Origin: Escherichia phage Henu8
Sequence record: NC_049853.1
Strand: one strand, 5' to 3'
DNA: 49,890 nucleotides
The position numbers and the translations under genes were made by a program. How positions within the stretch are numbered: the stretch's first letter is position 1; every line of letters starts with the position of its first letter. Below the pieces are notes generated by a model. The model was not told the origin of the DNA. It saw nothing but the letters and a program-made list of their open reading frames with translations, and did not search any database. This document shows positions 42,675-48,451 of this stretch, piece after piece.

Positions 42675-42932
42675 ATGCAGAAAGAAAGAAGAGTTTTACT
42701 TAATGAATATGGCGAATTTCTTTTGTATCGCGCTATGGTATGCGATGCGCTTGATAAAAACCCCAACGTGAAAAAGATGATTGATTGCGATCCGTGGGAA
42801 TTTTCAAGCGCATTAGATATGAGCTTTGAGGAGACAAAAAAACTCCCGCTTGAAAAATGGAACGAGCAAATCAGAAATGACATGCAAGAATTTGTCGATT
42901 CGTGGAATTTTCAGCACGGAATGATCCACTAA
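42675..42932 (+). CDS. hypothetical protein (85 aa)
   Basis: ORF 42588..42932 trimmed to ATG 42675 just after the dam stop. Confidence 0.45.
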   Translation: MQKERRVLLNEYGEFLLYRAMVCDALDKNPNVKKMIDCDPWEFSSALDMSFEETKKLPLEKWNEQIRNDMQEFVDSWNFQHGMIH

Positions 42933-42975
42933 TAGCACTTTTTGTTAAAACGCCCGGCCTTGTGTCGGGCATAAT
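42932..42975 (+). promoter_or_regulatory. conserved phage promoter motif + -10 (CATAAT)
   Basis: TAATAGCACTTTTTGTTAAAAC with stop TAA embedded; 18-nt spacer; CATAAT 42970-42975. Confidence 0.55.
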
Positions 42976-43007
42976 TATTTCATCAAAACGAACAAGAGGA
43001 AAATAAA

Positions 43008-43187
43008 ATGGTTGTTTACGATCCACGCGCTTTTAAAATTGCTCAAGAAGTTTCACGCGAATCTGTTGCTGGCGGTTCGGTTAACGGCTATCAGTTTGAT
43101 TGGTCGGCAGCAATGACCTTGCTTAAGGTTGCATATGGTCACGCGCCAATTGAAACAGCGGAGGAATATTATAAGCATGAAGGTTGA
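43008..43187 (+). CDS. hypothetical protein (59 aa)
   Basis: Manual: AGAGGAAAA SD, ATG 43008, MVVYDPRAFKIAQEVSRESVAGGSVNGYQFDWSAAMTLLKVAYGHAPIETAEEYYKHEG; below ORF-track cutoff. Confidence 0.5.
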   Translation: MVVYDPRAFKIAQEVSRESVAGGSVNGYQFDWSAAMTLLKVAYGHAPIETAEEYYKHEG

Positions 43188-43419
43188 ACAAGGTAGGCAG
43201 GCCGTATGGGATCACGCAAAGGAGTGCGGGATCTCCGAAGACATAGCCAGGATAGCGAAATATTTTGATATTGCTGACATAAGCATTATCAGCGGAGACA
43301 AAATGACATTTCTCAATGAGCGACCGCGCAAGATGCATCGCGTACCTGCAATACCAACAAAGATTGATTTCAAAGAGGCTATGGCGAAAATTCGCGATCC
43401 GCGCAAATACTACAAATGA
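43177..43419 (+). CDS. hypothetical protein (80 aa)
   Basis: ORF 43129..43419 trimmed to ATG 43177 (GGAGGA SD); overlaps upstream stop. Confidence 0.5.
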   Translation: MKVEQGRQAVWDHAKECGISEDIARIAKYFDIADISIISGDKMTFLNERPRKMHRVPAIPTKIDFKEAMAKIRDPRKYYK

Positions 43420-43509
43420 GGATTATTATCATGTGGCGTTTGTTACTTTTGCCCTTACCTGTTATGATGGCGATCTCTATTGTATACGTTGTAATAATGA
43501 GAGCGTGAC

Positions 43510-43983
43510 ATGTGGAGTAAGATATTAAAATACGAAAATGGAATTTTAATCTGGAAGATTAAAACAAGAAAAGTGAATCCTGGAGATGTTGCTGGATGTA
43601 AAAATAGCAGGGGATATATAGTTTTTAACTATAAAGGGAAACAATATAGGGCGCACCGTGTTATTTGGCAAATTCACAACGGGGATATTCCGTCAAACAT
43701 GGAGATTGATCACATAAACCATGATAAAACTGACAACAGGATCGAAAATCTTAGGCTTGTTGATAGAACAGAAAACGGACGCAATCAGTCAAGGAGAAAT
43801 GACAATTCCAGTGGTTTTTGTGGTGTTCATTGGCACAAACCATTATCAAAATGGTGTGCAAGAATTAGGGTGAATGGTAAACTTGTGCATCTTGGATATT
43901 TTGATAAACTTGATGATGCAAAAATAGCAAGGATTGAAGCCAATAAAAAGTTTAACTTTCACGAAAATCACGGGGGAGAATAA
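43510..43983 (+). CDS. HNH homing endonuclease with AP2-like DNA-binding domain
   Basis: 157 aa; AHRVIWQIHNGDIPSNMEIDHINHDKTDNRIENLRLV (HNH core) then GVHWHKPLSKWCARIRVNGKLVHLGYFD (AP2-like); AT-rich coding sequence. Confidence 0.8.
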   Translation: MWSKILKYENGILIWKIKTRKVNPGDVAGCKNSRGYIVFNYKGKQYRAHRVIWQIHNGDIPSNMEIDHINHDKTDNRIENLRLVDRTENGRNQSRRNDNSSGFCGVHWHKPLSKWCARIRVNGKLVHLGYFDKLDDAKIARIEANKKFNFHENHGGE

Positions 43984-43988
43984 TTGCA

Positions 43989-45101
43989 ATGAAAATTAAA
44001 ATAAGCGATGAACAATTTATCAATGAGCGCAAGCAGGGAAAGACATATAAGCAGATCGCTAATGAGTATGGCATGAACGTTCGCAGCATTGAGCGACGAG
44101 CGGCACGATTAGCAAAGCAAGGTAAAGTTACAACCATCGGATCGCCTGGTTTTGGTGTTACTGGAGAATCAAAGCTAATTGATAAAGATGGCAATGTGGT
44201 TATGACATGGATTAAGACAAGTAAGGACCGCGAACAGTTAGAAGCATTAATGCAGGCCGCTATGGATGCATTTAGCGAAGAAGTTCCTAGACTTGATCCG
44301 CAACCAGAATCAAAAAAGGATTATAGCGAGACGTTATCACTGTATCCGATCTTTGATATGCACTTGGGCGCAATGGCGCATAAGCATGAATGCGGCGAGA
44401 ATTGGGATACAGCAACAGCAGAGCGCGTAATGAATAATTTCATTGATTATTCCATCCAGTGCGCGCCGGATAGTGAAAAGGCTGTTTTGCTGATTGGTGG
44501 TGACATGCTGCATAGTGACGGCTTGGAAGCAGTGACACCTGCAAGCGGTCACGTATTGGATCAAGATAGTCGATACGCAAAACTTGTTTATGTTGCCATA
44601 CGGTCAGTGCGTAGAGCAATTACAAAGCTGTTATCAAAACACAAAAACGTCGAGATTCAGATCATTGAAGGCAACCACGACCAAAGCGGCATGATCTGGT
44701 TGCGCGCAGCAATGGCGGCAGCATATGAGAATGAGCCGCGAGTGCATGTTGATGTTTCTCCGCGAGTAGTTCATCACACACAATATGGCAAAACATTCCT
44801 GGCATACCATCATGGGCATACTATCCGCAAGCCTGAAACATTACTAATGATGTGCGCGGCAGACTGGCGCGAAGACTTCGGAAATTCAAAAATGATGTAT
44901 GCTCACGTAGGGCACTGGCATCATCAGACAGTAACTGAAACAAGCCTTGGTATTGTTGAAGTGCATAGCACTATGGCGGCAAAAGATGCATATGCGGCGC
45001 GCGGTGGATGGCGTTCTCGTCGCCGTGCGGCTGTTATTGTTTATGATAAAGAATACGGAGAAGTAGGGCGATTTATGCATTATCCAGAAATGGCTGGTTG
45101 A
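43989..45101 (+). CDS. calcineurin-like metallophosphoesterase with N-terminal HTH
   Basis: 370 aa; GGDMLH ... GNHD ... GHWHH metallophosphatase motifs; N-terminal KTYKQIANEYGMNVRSIERR HTH-like. Confidence 0.65.
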   Translation: MKIKISDEQFINERKQGKTYKQIANEYGMNVRSIERRAARLAKQGKVTTIGSPGFGVTGESKLIDKDGNVVMTWIKTSKDREQLEALMQAAMDAFSEEVPRLDPQPESKKDYSETLSLYPIFDMHLGAMAHKHECGENWDTATAERVMNNFIDYSIQCAPDSEKAVLLIGGDMLHSDGLEAVTPASGHVLDQDSRYAKLVYVAIRSVRRAITKLLSKHKNVEIQIIEGNHDQSGMIWLRAAMAAAYENEPRVHVDVSPRVVHHTQYGKTFLAYHHGHTIRKPETLLMMCAADWREDFGNSKMMYAHVGHWHHQTVTETSLGIVEVHSTMAAKDAYAARGGWRSRRRAAVIVYDKEYGEVGRFMHYPEMAG

Positions 45102-45144
45102 ACTTTTAATCATTAAAATATAAATATAAATCATCAATTTAATT

Positions 45145-45176
45145 GGGCGTGGCATTTTGCTTCGCCCTTTTTTTAT
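45145..45176 (+). terminator. rho-independent terminator before lysis cassette
   Basis: GGGCG-N13-CGCCC hairpin followed by T7. Confidence 0.55.
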
Positions 45177-45247
45177 TCCTTTTTGTGCGTTCAATGGTTA
45201 GGATACAATCAATTAATTGTTGACTTTTATATACAGGAGATCTAATC

Positions 45248-45463
45248 ATGAAAGATTTTTTAAACGCTGCAACTTCCGGCACTGGCGGCGCGTCAATCAC
45301 TGGCGCGGTAACTGGTCAAACAACCATTGCAATAGCCAGCTTCGTTTTGATGGCTGCATTTGGTATGTGGGGCGCTTATCTTCGCTGGCGTGATAGTAAG
45401 GCGCTACGTGACGCGCTTGAATGCGGTGATATTAAGAAAGCTATTGAGATCAGAGGTAAATAA
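45248..45463 (+). CDS. holin
   Basis: 71 aa; AGGAG SD; hydrophobic core with charged C-terminus; directly upstream of the endolysin. Confidence 0.65.
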
Positions 45464-45951
45464 TGAGTATAAAACAAAGAGTGACCGCTGCGGCTTTTGG
45501 CGTTGCTCTTGCCCTTACTTCTCCGCTACTGGAGGAAATAGAAGGAGTAAAACATAAGCCTTACAAAGATATTGCTGGGATATGGACGGTTTGCGCCGGA
45601 ATAACTGGACCTGACGTAATACCAGGCAAAACGTACACACAAAGAGAGTGCGATGCGCTACTGGCAAAGCATATCAAGATCGCAAAGGATGAAGTTGATA
45701 AACGTGTGAAGGTTGACATTCCTGATACAATGCGCGCGGCGATGTATTCATTCACATACAATGCTGGCACTGGTGCTTTTAGAAATTCAACTATGCTTAA
45801 GCTGATTAATAACGGTCGTTATATGGAAGCGTGCAATCAGTTATGGCGATGGACAAAATACACCAATCCAAAAACAGGAAAGAAAGAAACGTCTAAAGGA
45901 CTGCGCAACCGCCGCGCGGTGGAATTTAAATATTGCATTAAGGATCTGTAA
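45463..45951 (+). CDS. endolysin (lysozyme-like muramidase), possible SAR N-terminus
   Basis: 162 aa; E-x8-D-x5-T catalytic triad spacing ([19 protein letters not shown]); N-terminal Gly/Ala-rich weakly hydrophobic segment [17 protein letters not shown]. Confidence 0.8.
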
Positions 45952-45953
45952 TC

Positions 45954-46340
45954 ATGAGAAAGTTATCAGCAATCGCGATCGCTGTTATTTTGTCTGGATG
46001 TTCAAGCGTTACGCCACTGACCGGATTGATAGGAAGCAAGCCTGAGATAACAGCACAGGCAGGAGCAGAGAACGTAAAGCAGACCGTTGGCGTTACCGCA
46101 AAGCAGGACACCAGTACAAAACAGGAAACTACAATAAAGGAATCTGCGGTTGATAAGGTGGACACGTCCAGCAAGAAGGATTTCACTACATCAACCATTC
46201 AGGCTAACACCATCAAGGCTGATAAAATCCAGGTCGTGCAAGGTAATAACGGCAGATGGTACGACCCCATAATCATATGCGTGGTTGTGCTCATTGTGCT
46301 GATTTGGCTTTACTGGAGGGAAAAGAAAAAGGAGGCTTAA
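45954..46340 (+). CDS. unimolecular spanin (lipoprotein with C-terminal TMD)
   Basis: 128 aa; lipobox ILSGC at N-terminus; C-terminal TMD PIIICVVVLIVLIWLYW plus basic tail; last gene of the lysis cassette. Confidence 0.7.
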   Translation: MRKLSAIAIAVILSGCSSVTPLTGLIGSKPEITAQAGAENVKQTVGVTAKQDTSTKQETTIKESAVDKVDTSSKKDFTTSTIQANTIKADKIQVVQGNNGRWYDPIIICVVVLIVLIWLYWREKKKEA

Positions 46341-46356
46341 CGCCTCCTTTGTTATT
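46321..46356. terminator. bidirectional terminator between lysis cassette and convergent minus-strand operon
   Basis: A-run, AGGAGGC-TTAAC-GCCTCCT hairpin, T-rich. Confidence 0.55.
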
Positions 46357-46546
46357 CAATACGCTTTACAGTAACCAACAAAACGCCGTCCTCATCACAC
46401 AAATTATGCTCTGATATATCAAACGCTCGCATGTCAGAATGAATGAGCGTTAACATTGCGTGCATGAAATCGTCATGTGAGATTGAACTTACGGCGCAGA
46501 ACTTCAATATTTTGTCTATTAGCATTTGACGTAAACAATTCTTCAT
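46352..46546 (-). CDS. hypothetical protein (start uncertain)
   Basis: ORF track; overlaps 3' end of upstream gene by 74 nt, internal ATGs possible. Confidence 0.3.
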   Translation of the reverse strand: MKNCLRQMLIDKILKFCAVSSISHDDFMHAMLTLIHSDMRAFDISEHNLCDEDGVLLVTVKRIE

Positions 46547-46865
46547 CGCTCATTTCTCCGATCCGTAAAACATCCCTTACCCATTCGTTTTGCATACCTT
46601 CAAGGCTGTAAAGTTCAAACGAGAAAGGGCGATTTGCCGATCCTTTCTTACACCAGAACTTTCCACCAACTCCATCAAGATAACCAGCGGTCATCATTCT
46701 TGCGCAAAACTCTTTTGAAACAGCAGTCGCAAACATTCTCGGCGTAAACCCTGCGGCCCTTGCGAGCCGCTCACATTCTCTATGCTGAAATATAAATTTT
46801 GCTATATGTTGACGTGTAAACCATTCGAATGACTCACACCAGCGATACAGATCCAGAAGAAACAT
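46473..46865 (-). CDS. hypothetical protein (130 aa)
   Basis: ORF 46473..46871 (GTG) trimmed to first ATG 46865; GGGGTGA SD; overlaps stop of upstream gene. Confidence 0.5.
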   Translation of the reverse strand: MFLLDLYRWCESFEWFTRQHIAKFIFQHRECERLARAAGFTPRMFATAVSKEFCARMMTAGYLDGVGGKFWCKKGSANRPFSFELYSLEGMQNEWVRDVLRIGEMSDEELFTSNANRQNIEVLRRKFNLT

Positions 46866-46867
46866 AA

Positions 46868-48451
46868 TCACCCCAACAATGTTGGATTTACGAAAACAAC
46901 GCCATTAATCACACAAATATAATTTCTTTCTTCAAGCATCGGCAGCAGTTGCGTTTCCATGCGCTTCATTACGCCAGCCTGACCAACAAACGGCTTAACT
47001 TTTCGTGCTGCCTCATATATGGCGCGCACATTCAAGATTCCCTTATTAGCCTTGCCGTGTCGAGTGATGATCTCGATTAGTTTACCCATTTCAGCATCAT
47101 CACCAGCGTAGCCAGAAGCGTTGGCGGCGCTAATGTATGTTTTGCTCAACTCGCTAAACATCAGTAATGCTTCCTGAACGGTTTCAACTTCAATCTCTTT
47201 CGACTTCTGAGGGTATCCGCCAGGATTAAACCAGTTGCGGATAGTGTGCAAAACTGAAGCAATCCTGATCACCTGCTTATCCATTTTGCCAAGCGCGCCG
47301 CGCAGCATTGTATGCGAATACTTTCCTCCATCGGCAAGGTGCGGCTCCATCTCCTGACGAGCCATGTTAAGCACTCGCATTGCTGATTTGCTGATCTTAA
47401 GCTGGATGTTTGATTCGCTCATGATGTTATGGATCAGCTTAAAATATTGACTTTTCAGTTCTCCATCAACAGGCTCATAAGTCGAATCACCGTTATCATC
47501 AACAAACTTTCTACGGCCTAAAAATGATTCCTCACGTACAAGCAAATAACGCTCACTTACACCGATACCGCGCGATCCTGCATCCATGATGGCATTGATT
47601 GTTTCATCCTGGGCAATTACGGCCATACAGCCAAGAGCTTTAAAACTCATATTGTTGTCAGCGTTTGCACGAGCTATAGAAACATGACCATGATCCCATG
47701 CTTTTAGCACAAGTTCGCTGTTGGTTTTACGTTCGCTATTGGCATATGTCAGACCTAAAAGGCTGTTAATACTCGTTGCCTCGTCTGAAATTACAGCAAA
47801 GTTTCCCTGGCGGTTGTTGATTCTTGCAAGTCCTTCCGGCGTTGTGTCTGAGACAGGGAAAACAATGTCACACATCTTTTCCAGCTTTTCTTCCAGATCT
47901 TCTTTCTCCTGGTACAGAGATTCCATATCAGCTCCGGAACGCTCGCTTTTCATTTCCTTTGCAAGACCTGCCAACTTTGCCTGAATCTTTTTTCGTTCCT
48001 TCTTTCGCTGATCATTAATTCTTTCCACCTCAGCAACCATAGGAGCAAGTGCCAGGCTGTTAACGGCAGATTTACCAGTTGAAGGAGGCTGACTTGTAAC
48101 AACATAAAGAGCGGTCGGCTGATCCGTTCCGTGATACTCAACAGTGAAGCGTCCAAGCATTGCAGCAGACACGCAGCCGATAAAATGCATATATGCCGAT
48201 GATTCAGGGAACTGAACTGATCGAGCAATGTTGCGCGCCAACTTTCCAACAACATCAACATCATTGCCAAGAGAAATTACAGGGTAGCGATCGTTTCCGT
48301 TATTAACATCATTAACCTCACCCCAAAAGCTGGACGATTGACGGTATCCGTTTGCCTGAATGGACACGCGCACCGGAGACAATCCTTGTGCATCAGCTAA
48401 TTCGATAATTTGTTTTGGTGTTAGTTTATTGGTTTCAAACGAAAAATTCAT
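46868..48451 (-). CDS. large early P-loop protein (527 aa, function unknown)
   Basis: Trimmed to ATG 48451 (AAGGAG SD, 9-nt spacer); Walker A-like TSQPPSTGKS; Lys/Glu-rich coiled-coil segment. Confidence 0.6.
   Translation of the reverse strand: MNFSFETNKLTPKQIIELADAQGLSPVRVSIQANGYRQSSSFWGEVNDVNNGNDRYPVISLGNDVDVVGKLARNIARSVQFPESSAYMHFIGCVSAAMLGRFTVEYHGTDQPTALYVVTSQPPSTGKSAVNSLALAPMVAEVERINDQRKKERKKIQAKLAGLAKEMKSERSGADMESLYQEKEDLEEKLEKMCDIVFPVSDTTPEGLARINNRQGNFAVISDEATSINSLLGLTYANSERKTNSELVLKAWDHGHVSIARANADNNMSFKALGCMAVIAQDETINAIMDAGSRGIGVSERYLLVREESFLGRRKFVDDNGDSTYEPVDGELKSQYFKLIHNIMSESNIQLKISKSAMRVLNMARQEMEPHLADGGKYSHTMLRGALGKMDKQVIRIASVLHTIRNWFNPGGYPQKSKEIEVETVQEALLMFSELSKTYISAANASGYAGDDAEMGKLIEIITRHGKANKGILNVRAIYEAARKVKPFVGQAGVMKRMETQLLPMLEERNYICVINGVVFVNPTLLG

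Follow-up and report, generated by a model that had tools for sequence, protein, structure and literature searches.

The lysis cassette of phage T1 consists of genes 13 (holin), 12 (endolysin) and 11 (unimolecular spanin, or u-spanin), at 42878–43982 of NC_005833. T1 gene 11 complements the RzRz1 defect of lambda, and the LSGC lipobox of its product has been tested by substitutions (PMC6139136; reviewed in PMC7830690) and is functional in T1; this literature concerns gp11 itself and not the Henu8 gene discussed here. The gp11 family has been described as having a lipobox, a C-terminal transmembrane domain (TMD), no periplasmic Cys and a periplasmic domain predicted to form a short helix and at least four beta strands (PMC6139136). 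As to the other two genes, the Young laboratory's curation classes T1-family cassettes as a pinholin plus an endolysin of the SAR (signal-anchor-release) type (PMC6139136), the same reading is given for KanT1 and T1 (PMC13164509), and TLS Gp68 and T1 Gp12 have been described as predicted SAR endolysins (PMC11447400). The definitive test of a SAR endolysin is its release from the inner membrane upon depolarisation or by a pinholin (PMC9239132); an experiment of this kind with a T1-type endolysin did not turn up in the accessible literature, and the SAR status of these enzymes is a published prediction.

We analysed the lysis region of Escherichia phage Henu8 (NC_049853.1) within a window of 49,890 nucleotides, i.e. 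the whole stretch of DNA under analysis. The whole window is ~95% identical to published Drexlerviridae/Tempevirinae coliphages, and half of it is ~95% identical to damhaus and its relatives. The cassette DNA itself is 91–97% identical to dozens of deposited coliphages, including grams, PGN590, KarlJaspers (classified as Drexlerviridae; Tempevirinae; Hanrivervirus), vojen and JLBYU09. Near-identical GenBank records already name the three genes holin, endolysin and 'u-spanin', 'putative unimolecular spanin' or 'Rz-like spanin'. These T1-like phages grow on E. coli K-12.

Organization and boundaries of the Henu8 lysis cassette

Three plus-strand open reading frames (ORFs) exactly fill positions 45248–46340 and are tightly packed in the ORF list. 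The initial annotation had read them as a holin, an endolysin and a unimolecular spanin, and this reading is borne out by the ORFs themselves, by matches to PHROG and Pfam families and by the T1 orthologues. The genes, and the structures that flank them, are as follows:

45145–45174, + strand: terminator-like hairpin (45145–45167) and U-run, of the intrinsic type; RNA fold of −14.6 kcal/mol, z = −4.2, then UUUUUUU
45248–45463, + strand: holin, 71 aa, orthologue of T1 gp13; PHROG 2877 'holin', 1.2e-35
45463–45951, + strand: endolysin, 162 aa, a GH24/T4-lysozyme-type muramidase of the R21 subgroup, orthologue of T1 gp12; PF00959 Phage_lysozyme, 8.9e-38
45954–46340, + strand: unimolecular spanin, 128 aa, orthologue of T1 gp11; PHROG 1804 'Rz-like spanin', 3.2e-48, end to end
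46328–46350, no strand assigned: 9-bp GC-rich hairpin over the spanin stop codon; a match in the minus-strand terminator scan, folding with z = −3.3 (+ strand) and −4.0 (− strand)

By BLASTP, the holin, endolysin and spanin are 59%, 65% and 47% identical to T1 gp13, gp12 and gp11 (1e-29, 2e-83 and 1e-37, respectively). Like the PHROG and Pfam scores listed above, these values go well past anything expected by chance. Gene order is the same, and the protein sizes are 71, 162 and 128 aa in Henu8 and 71, 162 and 133 aa in T1. In both phages the holin stop and the endolysin start overlap by one base (42878–43093 and 43093–43581 in T1; 45248–45463 and 45463–45951 in Henu8), with the endolysin ATG and the holin stop codon of Henu8 sharing a base (TAATG) at 45463. 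The spanin ORF starts 2 nt past the endolysin stop. On inspection of the sequence, a Shine-Dalgarno-like purine run lies 6–9 nt 5′ of each of the three starts, with AGGAG 8 nt 5′ of the holin ATG. The three genes are a T1-type late lysis cassette, gene-for-gene orthologous to T1 13-12-11, and their identities as holin, endolysin and u-spanin are near certain. A search of NCBIfam gave no match for the holin, and matches only far below the curated cut-offs for the endolysin (BgtA, SpmX) and the spanin (RIFIN, TraV); in Pfam, neither the holin (DUF3262) nor the spanin (RIFIN, CCSMST1) had anything better than sub-threshold noise. The antisense ORFs within the cassette matched no phage protein family.

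The surroundings of the cassette are also shared, both phages having an exonuclease gene upstream and a convergent helicase operon downstream. In T1, an HNH endonuclease gene and a standalone SH3 gene (DUF7244, ST14) lie between the exonuclease and the holin (PMC13164509), whereas in Henu8 the two are separated by a 146-bp spacer alone and there is no SH3 homologue. The upstream hairpin closes the preceding unit, the DNA repair exonuclease gene (43989–45101), and delimits the cassette on its 5′ side. An internal mismatch in the stem kept this hairpin from being picked up by a simple terminator scan; in T1, a terminator is annotated at the corresponding site, after ST16. At the other end, the hairpin over the spanin stop codon probably acts as a bidirectional terminator that separates the cassette from the convergent minus-strand genes, and an annotated T1 terminator also overlaps the end of gene 11. 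The promoter scan found no convincing promoter for the cassette: its sole consensus match, to sigma-70 at 45220–45249, ends inside the holin start codon and so cannot drive the gene, and it was rejected.

Features of the u-spanin

The initial annotation described the third product as a single protein with an N-terminal lipoprotein signal (ILSGC) and a C-terminal transmembrane helix, i.e. the architecture of T1 gp11. Both elements were found:

45990–46001, + strand: spanin lipobox L13-S-G-C16, with I12 before it and Ser17 at +2; from motif reading
46266–46316, + strand: spanin C-terminal transmembrane helix PIIICVVVLIVLIWLYW, residues 105–121, then the basic tail REKKKEA; Kyte-Doolittle (KD) hydropathy 2.85, Wimley-White sum −16 (rough)

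Hydropathy was scored, here and below, with Kyte-Doolittle values and with an approximate Wimley-White octanol scale; the numbers are rough. The lipoprotein signal, MRKLSAIAIAVI-LSGC, ends at Cys16, and the LSGC lipobox is common to T1 and Henu8. Under the Lol sorting rule, a lipoprotein in which the +2 residue after the lipidated Cys is not Asp goes to the outer membrane, and Ser17 would thus direct the spanin there. The only Cys residues are Cys16, in the lipobox, and Cys109, inside the TMD, and the periplasmic part has none.

These features were followed through 36 usable relatives from IMG/VR, T1 and KarlJaspers, which are 47–98% identical. Of these, 34 have LSGC or LTGC as their lipobox and the other two (L032 and L033) have IVAC, while Ser occupies the +2 position in all 36. 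All relatives have a C-terminal hydrophobic stretch and a basic tail, the TMD sequence itself varying freely. No periplasmic Cys occurs in 31 distinct mature sequences; mature length is 112–117 aa among the relatives, and an N-proximal motif, GSKPEITAQAGAENVKQ, is nearly invariant. A further IMG/VR entry (L038), an apparent 193-aa 'spanin' without a lipobox, comes from a contig that is scrambled, with segments present in duplicate and the endolysin and spanin frames fused, and was discarded.

The Henu8 protein is five residues shorter than T1 gp11, from which it differs most in the periplasmic region. It nevertheless matches the gp11 family in lipobox, +2 residue, C-terminal TMD, lack of periplasmic Cys, similarity and last-gene position. 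The comparison with gp11 drawn in the initial annotation is exact, since the two are orthologues at the same position of a syntenic cassette. On these sequence features, the predicted role of the third gene as a u-spanin is solid.

The lambda Rz/Rz1 proteins hold the same last place in the lysis cassette and have the job that the u-spanin would do. Unlike Rz/Rz1, the Henu8 spanin is one polypeptide with both an outer-membrane lipid anchor and an inner-membrane TMD; no lipoprotein ORF is embedded in its gene or overlaps it, its periplasmic part lacks Cys, and it shows no similarity to the lambda proteins. A two-component system had been set aside in the initial annotation, and rightly so: a pair made up of an i-spanin with its TMD at the N-terminus and an o-spanin lipoprotein from a gene of its own, whether separate, overlapped or embedded, was not found, the alternative-frame ORFs at 46150–46272 and 46256–46414 having neither a signal peptide nor a lipobox. 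Phage 21 and DLP12 differ from Henu8 in the same respect, as they carry a two-component embedded spanin (rzpD/rzoD).

Could the third gene encode a generic phage lipoprotein, e.g. a Cor-like superinfection-exclusion lipoprotein, instead of a spanin? Residues 1–63 have a weak match to PHROG 1119 'Cor superinfection exclusion protein' (5.7e-05), and some GenBank records say just 'lipoprotein'. However, the match to the PHROG 1804 spanins is 43 orders of magnitude better and extends over the whole length, and the orthologous T1 gp11 does the work of Rz/Rz1 in complementation (PMC6139136). The C-terminal TMD and the place of the gene at the end of a lysis cassette also speak for a spanin. We regard a generic lipoprotein as extremely improbable, and treat the protein as a u-spanin below.

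A T4-lysozyme-type endolysin with a SAR-like N-terminus

Two parts of the endolysin bear on how the enzyme might be controlled:

45481–45531, + strand: endolysin SAR-like segment, residues 7–23; charge-free and weakly hydrophobic, with K4 and R6 before it and E24 and E25 after it
45541–45588, + strand: endolysin catalytic triad region, E27-x8-D36-x5-T42; regular-expression match

The lysozyme-type E-x8-D-x5-T spacing pointed out in the initial annotation is thus present, the three residues are invariant across 70 endolysin homologues, and R21 has the same triad. The closest solved relatives are full-length R21 (PDB 3hde, 2e-40), the phage 21 enzyme proven by experiment to be a SAR endolysin, and DLP12 RrrD (4zpu, 1.8e-39). 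The alignment with 3hde spans query residues 3–159, and thus covers the N-terminal SAR segment; the linker that leads to the catalytic domain in R21 (TGPSGN) is a 6-residue deletion in the Henu8 endolysin. Cys positions are identical in T1 and Henu8 (44, 63, 124 and 158), and as there is no Cys before residue 44, an R21-type mechanism fits better than the disulfide type of P1 Lyz.

The N-terminus reads MSIKQR, then a 17-residue charge-free run (V7–L23), then EEIE27G. The run has a mean KD of 1.84 and is 53% Gly/Ala/Ser/Thr, with six Ala and one Gly; the initial description of a Gly/Ala-rich, weakly hydrophobic N-terminus holds for the weak hydrophobicity and for Ala, but not for Gly. Characterised SAR segments are about 20 residues long and span the bilayer. 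That of R21 has 19 hydrophobic residues at a KD of 2.11 and 24 charge-free residues, compared with 17 residues at 1.84 in Henu8. Among homologues down to 57% identity, all 68 distinct N-termini have 1–3 basic residues followed by a charge-free run of 14–20 residues, with a median KD of 1.84; the shortest runs, of 14–15 residues, are found where some homologues have Lys at position 21. A list of SAR hallmarks is given in PMC9239132: basic residues come first, and after them a weakly hydrophobic stretch that carries no charge and abounds in small residues. The Henu8 N-terminus matches that list.

We modelled the enzyme with AlphaFold2 (AF2) using the alignment of 70 homologues (pLDDT 88.8). In this model residues 1–11 are disordered and residues 14–27 form the first helix of the fold, which runs directly into E27 (pLDDT 76–86). 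By Foldseek the best structural matches are full-length 4zpu and 3hde (TM 0.77–0.81), and the model fits these full-length structures better, in both rank and TM-score, than the truncated inactive R21 structure 3hdf. A single-sequence AlphaFold2 model (pLDDT 60, with residues 1–46 below 50) was uninformative and was not used. About half of the putative membrane segment therefore doubles as a helix in the structure of the active enzyme, which fits a refolding switch like that of R21.

The same first helix would also be expected under canonical lysis, where the endolysin would be soluble and cytoplasmic with its N-terminal stretch buried as that helix, the holin would have a single TMD and form large holes, and the u-spanin would act unchanged. 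The charge-free run is short for a membrane segment, all the more so in the homologues with 14–15 residues, and a 19-residue window over it has a KD of 1.29, below the usual TM threshold. In addition, a canonical endolysin accompanies the u-spanin in 17 of 46 cases (PMC6139136). Against this, residue 23 of the endolysin aligns with residue 12 of P22 lysozyme (chain 2anv), so that the Henu8 enzyme has ~11 extra N-terminal residues, among them the basic ones and the first of the charge-free run. In the alignment with R21, its N-terminus falls on the SAR domain, the plan of basic residues and then a charge-free run is kept in every one of the distinct homologues, and the Young laboratory's curation assigns a pinholin and a SAR endolysin to these phages (PMC6139136). 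Canonical lysis is, on balance, unlikely.

Export by a cleavable Sec signal peptide, with signal peptidase I cutting after A15-L-A17, would instead yield a free periplasmic enzyme that needs some other control. The n-region MSIKQR, the short h-region and the A-x-A at 15–17 have the form of such a signal; A15 is found in 68 of 70 homologues, and the product of cleavage would begin 10 residues ahead of the catalytic Glu. Yet at the −1 site (position 17) 15 of 70 homologues have Met or Val and T1 has Thr, so that there is no conserved cleavage site, and only ~8 weakly hydrophobic residues of h-region precede it. Cleavage would also take residues 14–17 off the first helix of the fold, and a constitutively secreted active muramidase would render the adjacent holin pointless. 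We consider such processing improbable.

The Henu8 endolysin is thus best described as a predicted SAR endolysin, which is well supported at the level of sequence, the caveats being a short segment that adjoins acidic residues and the catalytic helix. The wording 'possible SAR endolysin' in the initial annotation was pitched at a fitting level, given that R21 is the closest solved relative, that the N-terminal segment is part of the alignment and that the published classification agrees.

A pinholin-like plan in the holin

The holin, for which 37 relatives were found, has a 42-residue charge-free stretch (residues 4–45) that falls into two unequal parts:

45257–45316, + strand: holin candidate releasable TMD1, residues 4–23; charge-free, 75% Gly/Ala/Ser/Thr, KD 0.63
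45326–45382, + strand: holin robust transmembrane helix, residues 27–45; KD 1.86, Wimley-White octanol sum −7.5 (rough)

The first part is rich in Gly, Ser, Thr and Ala and is barely hydrophobic, being too polar for a TMD to be called from hydropathy alone. The helix at 27–45 is followed by a net-basic C-terminal tail (+3), which would be cytoplasmic according to the positive-inside rule. The T1 GenBank record gives the holin a 'single transmembrane domain', and in view of this the call of two TMDs is not secure; the same entry also favours canonical lysis by a large-hole holin. The gene has a single start codon: no other start lies between the upstream in-frame stop and 45248, and Met does not recur before residue 35, so that a dual-start antiholin is absent. 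TLS-type relatives differ in this respect, having a dual-start motif (M-R-D-F-L-L-M) that is absent from the Henu8 holin (PMC11447400).

Class II pinholins of the S21 68 type have a first segment that is weakly hydrophobic and can be released, a second that is a stable TMD, and a basic C-terminus in the cytoplasm; a dual-start motif yields holin and antiholin, and their holes, of nanometre scale, do not let a folded endolysin through. We compared the protein with EssD, in which DLP12 has its orthologue of S21 68, the pinholin of phage 21. Both are 71 aa in length, and the best 19-mers of their weak and strong segments have KD values of 0.68 and 1.72 in EssD and of 0.68 and 1.86 in Henu8. The Henu8 holin differs from EssD in having neither a charged loop between the hydrophobic segments nor a dual-start motif, and BLASTP gave no alignment with S21/EssD even at E = 100. 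As the hydropathy plan is shared with EssD but there is no similarity, and the family is PHROG 2877, the protein may act like a pinholin and yet is not a member of the S21 family. It is probably a pinholin-like class II holin. Taking holin and endolysin together, lysis by a pinholin and a SAR endolysin is the best-supported reading, and a likely one.

Discussion

The analysis gave the gene identities and their orthology, the motifs and their conservation, and the boundaries of the cassette. As a whole, these are best explained, and with good probability, by a T1-like lysis cassette in which a SAR endolysin, a pinholin-like holin and a u-spanin act in a three-step scheme. We infer from them how the endolysin would be tethered and released, what size of hole the holin would make and how the spanin would fuse the membranes.

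In this scheme the endolysin would be exported by Sec and then held inactive in the inner membrane by segment 7–23, a tether lying behind K4 and R6. Because about half of this tether is the first lysozyme helix, which leads to E27, the active site could not form while the segment is in the bilayer. The 71-aa holin would meanwhile build up in the inner membrane and trigger at a set time, probably with small, pinholin-like holes, and its triggering would collapse the proton motive force. The SAR segment would then leave the bilayer, and the endolysin would refold as R21 does and cut the peptidoglycan. The u-spanin would receive its lipid at Cys16 and be sorted to the outer membrane, while its C-terminal helix would remain in the inner one. 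With the peptidoglycan mesh removed, the spanin would draw the two membranes together and destroy the outer one.

A more specific version of the SAR–pinholin scheme can be proposed tentatively. Here the T1-type endolysin may be a SAR enzyme of minimal form, with the first lysozyme helix itself as its tether, no linker, and E24, E25 and catalytic E27 at the membrane surface. The holin would be from an unrelated family that came to the pinholin plan on its own, with a small-xxx-small ladder in its releasable segment. Such a ladder (G11, A15, G19, G23) is conserved and sits in the candidate releasable segment; under this proposal it may belong to that segment and not to a hole-lining helix. If the minimal arrangement were true, membrane insertion and folding of the active site would be mutually exclusive without the larger rearrangement undergone by R21. 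We hold this version to be possible rather than likely.

The arrangement of the cassette, its interpretation and the prediction of a SAR endolysin with a pinholin have already appeared in print for T1, TLS and KanT1, and the annotation of near-identical genomes agrees, a point not made in the initial annotation. The cassette therefore matters little beyond its correct annotation, and it fits a typical Tempevirinae/T1-like phage that lyses its host by the published T1 scheme.

Upstream boundary of the lysis cassette

Between the exonuclease gene and the holin gene there is only a 146-bp spacer (window 45102-45247). A search for a standalone SH3 (DUF7244) gene, using tblastn with the T1 gene ST14 as the query, found none between these genes nor anywhere else in the window. 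The SH3 gene accompanies the lysis cassettes of Drexlerviridae widely, without being universal (2026 paper, PMC13164509), and we therefore place Henu8 among the phages that do without it. In this respect Henu8 differs from T1, which has ST14.

We also examined the cassette for a promoter. A match to the sigma-70 consensus was found at 45220-45249 (TTGACT, an 18-bp spacer and AATCAT), and there was no other such match near the cassette. Since the 3' end of this match lies within the holin start codon, a translatable holin mRNA could not arise from it, and we rejected it as the cassette promoter.

Holin and spanin among relatives

In the Henu8 holin, a small-xxx-small ladder, G11-A15-G19-G23 (residues 11-23, window 45278-45316), lies within the N-terminal segment, which is weakly hydrophobic. 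Of the relatives listed, which range from T1 to TLS types, most retain the core G-G-[AS]-x3-[GS]-x2-T-G-[QE].

In two relatives (loci L032 and L033), the spanin signal is MKWLKLLYPFAVIIFACFIVAC-S; i.e. the lipobox reads IVAC rather than LSGC, and the signal peptide has one additional cysteine. This is a lipobox variant inside the T1 gp11 family. In a further locus (L038 374-2593, from the IMG/VR contig IMGVR_UViG_2974632794_000001), there are internal duplications of parts of the exonuclease gene and of the endolysin gene, and the endolysin and spanin reading frames are fused. We regard this contig as a probable assembly artefact and did not count it in the family statistics.

Some 20 unannotated records (H12 and H18-H23 among the phage-collection matches; MG0656xx) are labelled 'Campylobacter phage' with C. 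jejuni as the host. These records share 91-93% identity with the Henu8 lysis region; T1-like coliphages under this name look like contaminated or mislabelled records.

Downstream junction

Beyond the spanin gene, two minus-strand genes gave near-full-length profile matches to conserved families of unknown function:

46352-46546, minus strand, 64 aa, PHROG 9539
46473-46871, minus strand, 132 aa, PHROG 2794

As called, these overlap by 74 nt. In phage KarlJaspers, the block that aligns to the 46352-46871 part of the window contains an annotated 195-nt gene, bas06_0051, equal in length to the PHROG 9539 gene.

Directly after the spanin terminator hairpin, at 46350-46353, the window lacks ~293 bp of KarlJaspers (L039 2767-3059), within which lies a gene:

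KarlJaspers segment, minus strand, 73 aa, PHROG 10679, unknown function

A similar two-piece alignment was seen with grams, slyngel, EC147 and others. The ~293-bp difference represents an indel of an accessory gene, located at the operon junction.
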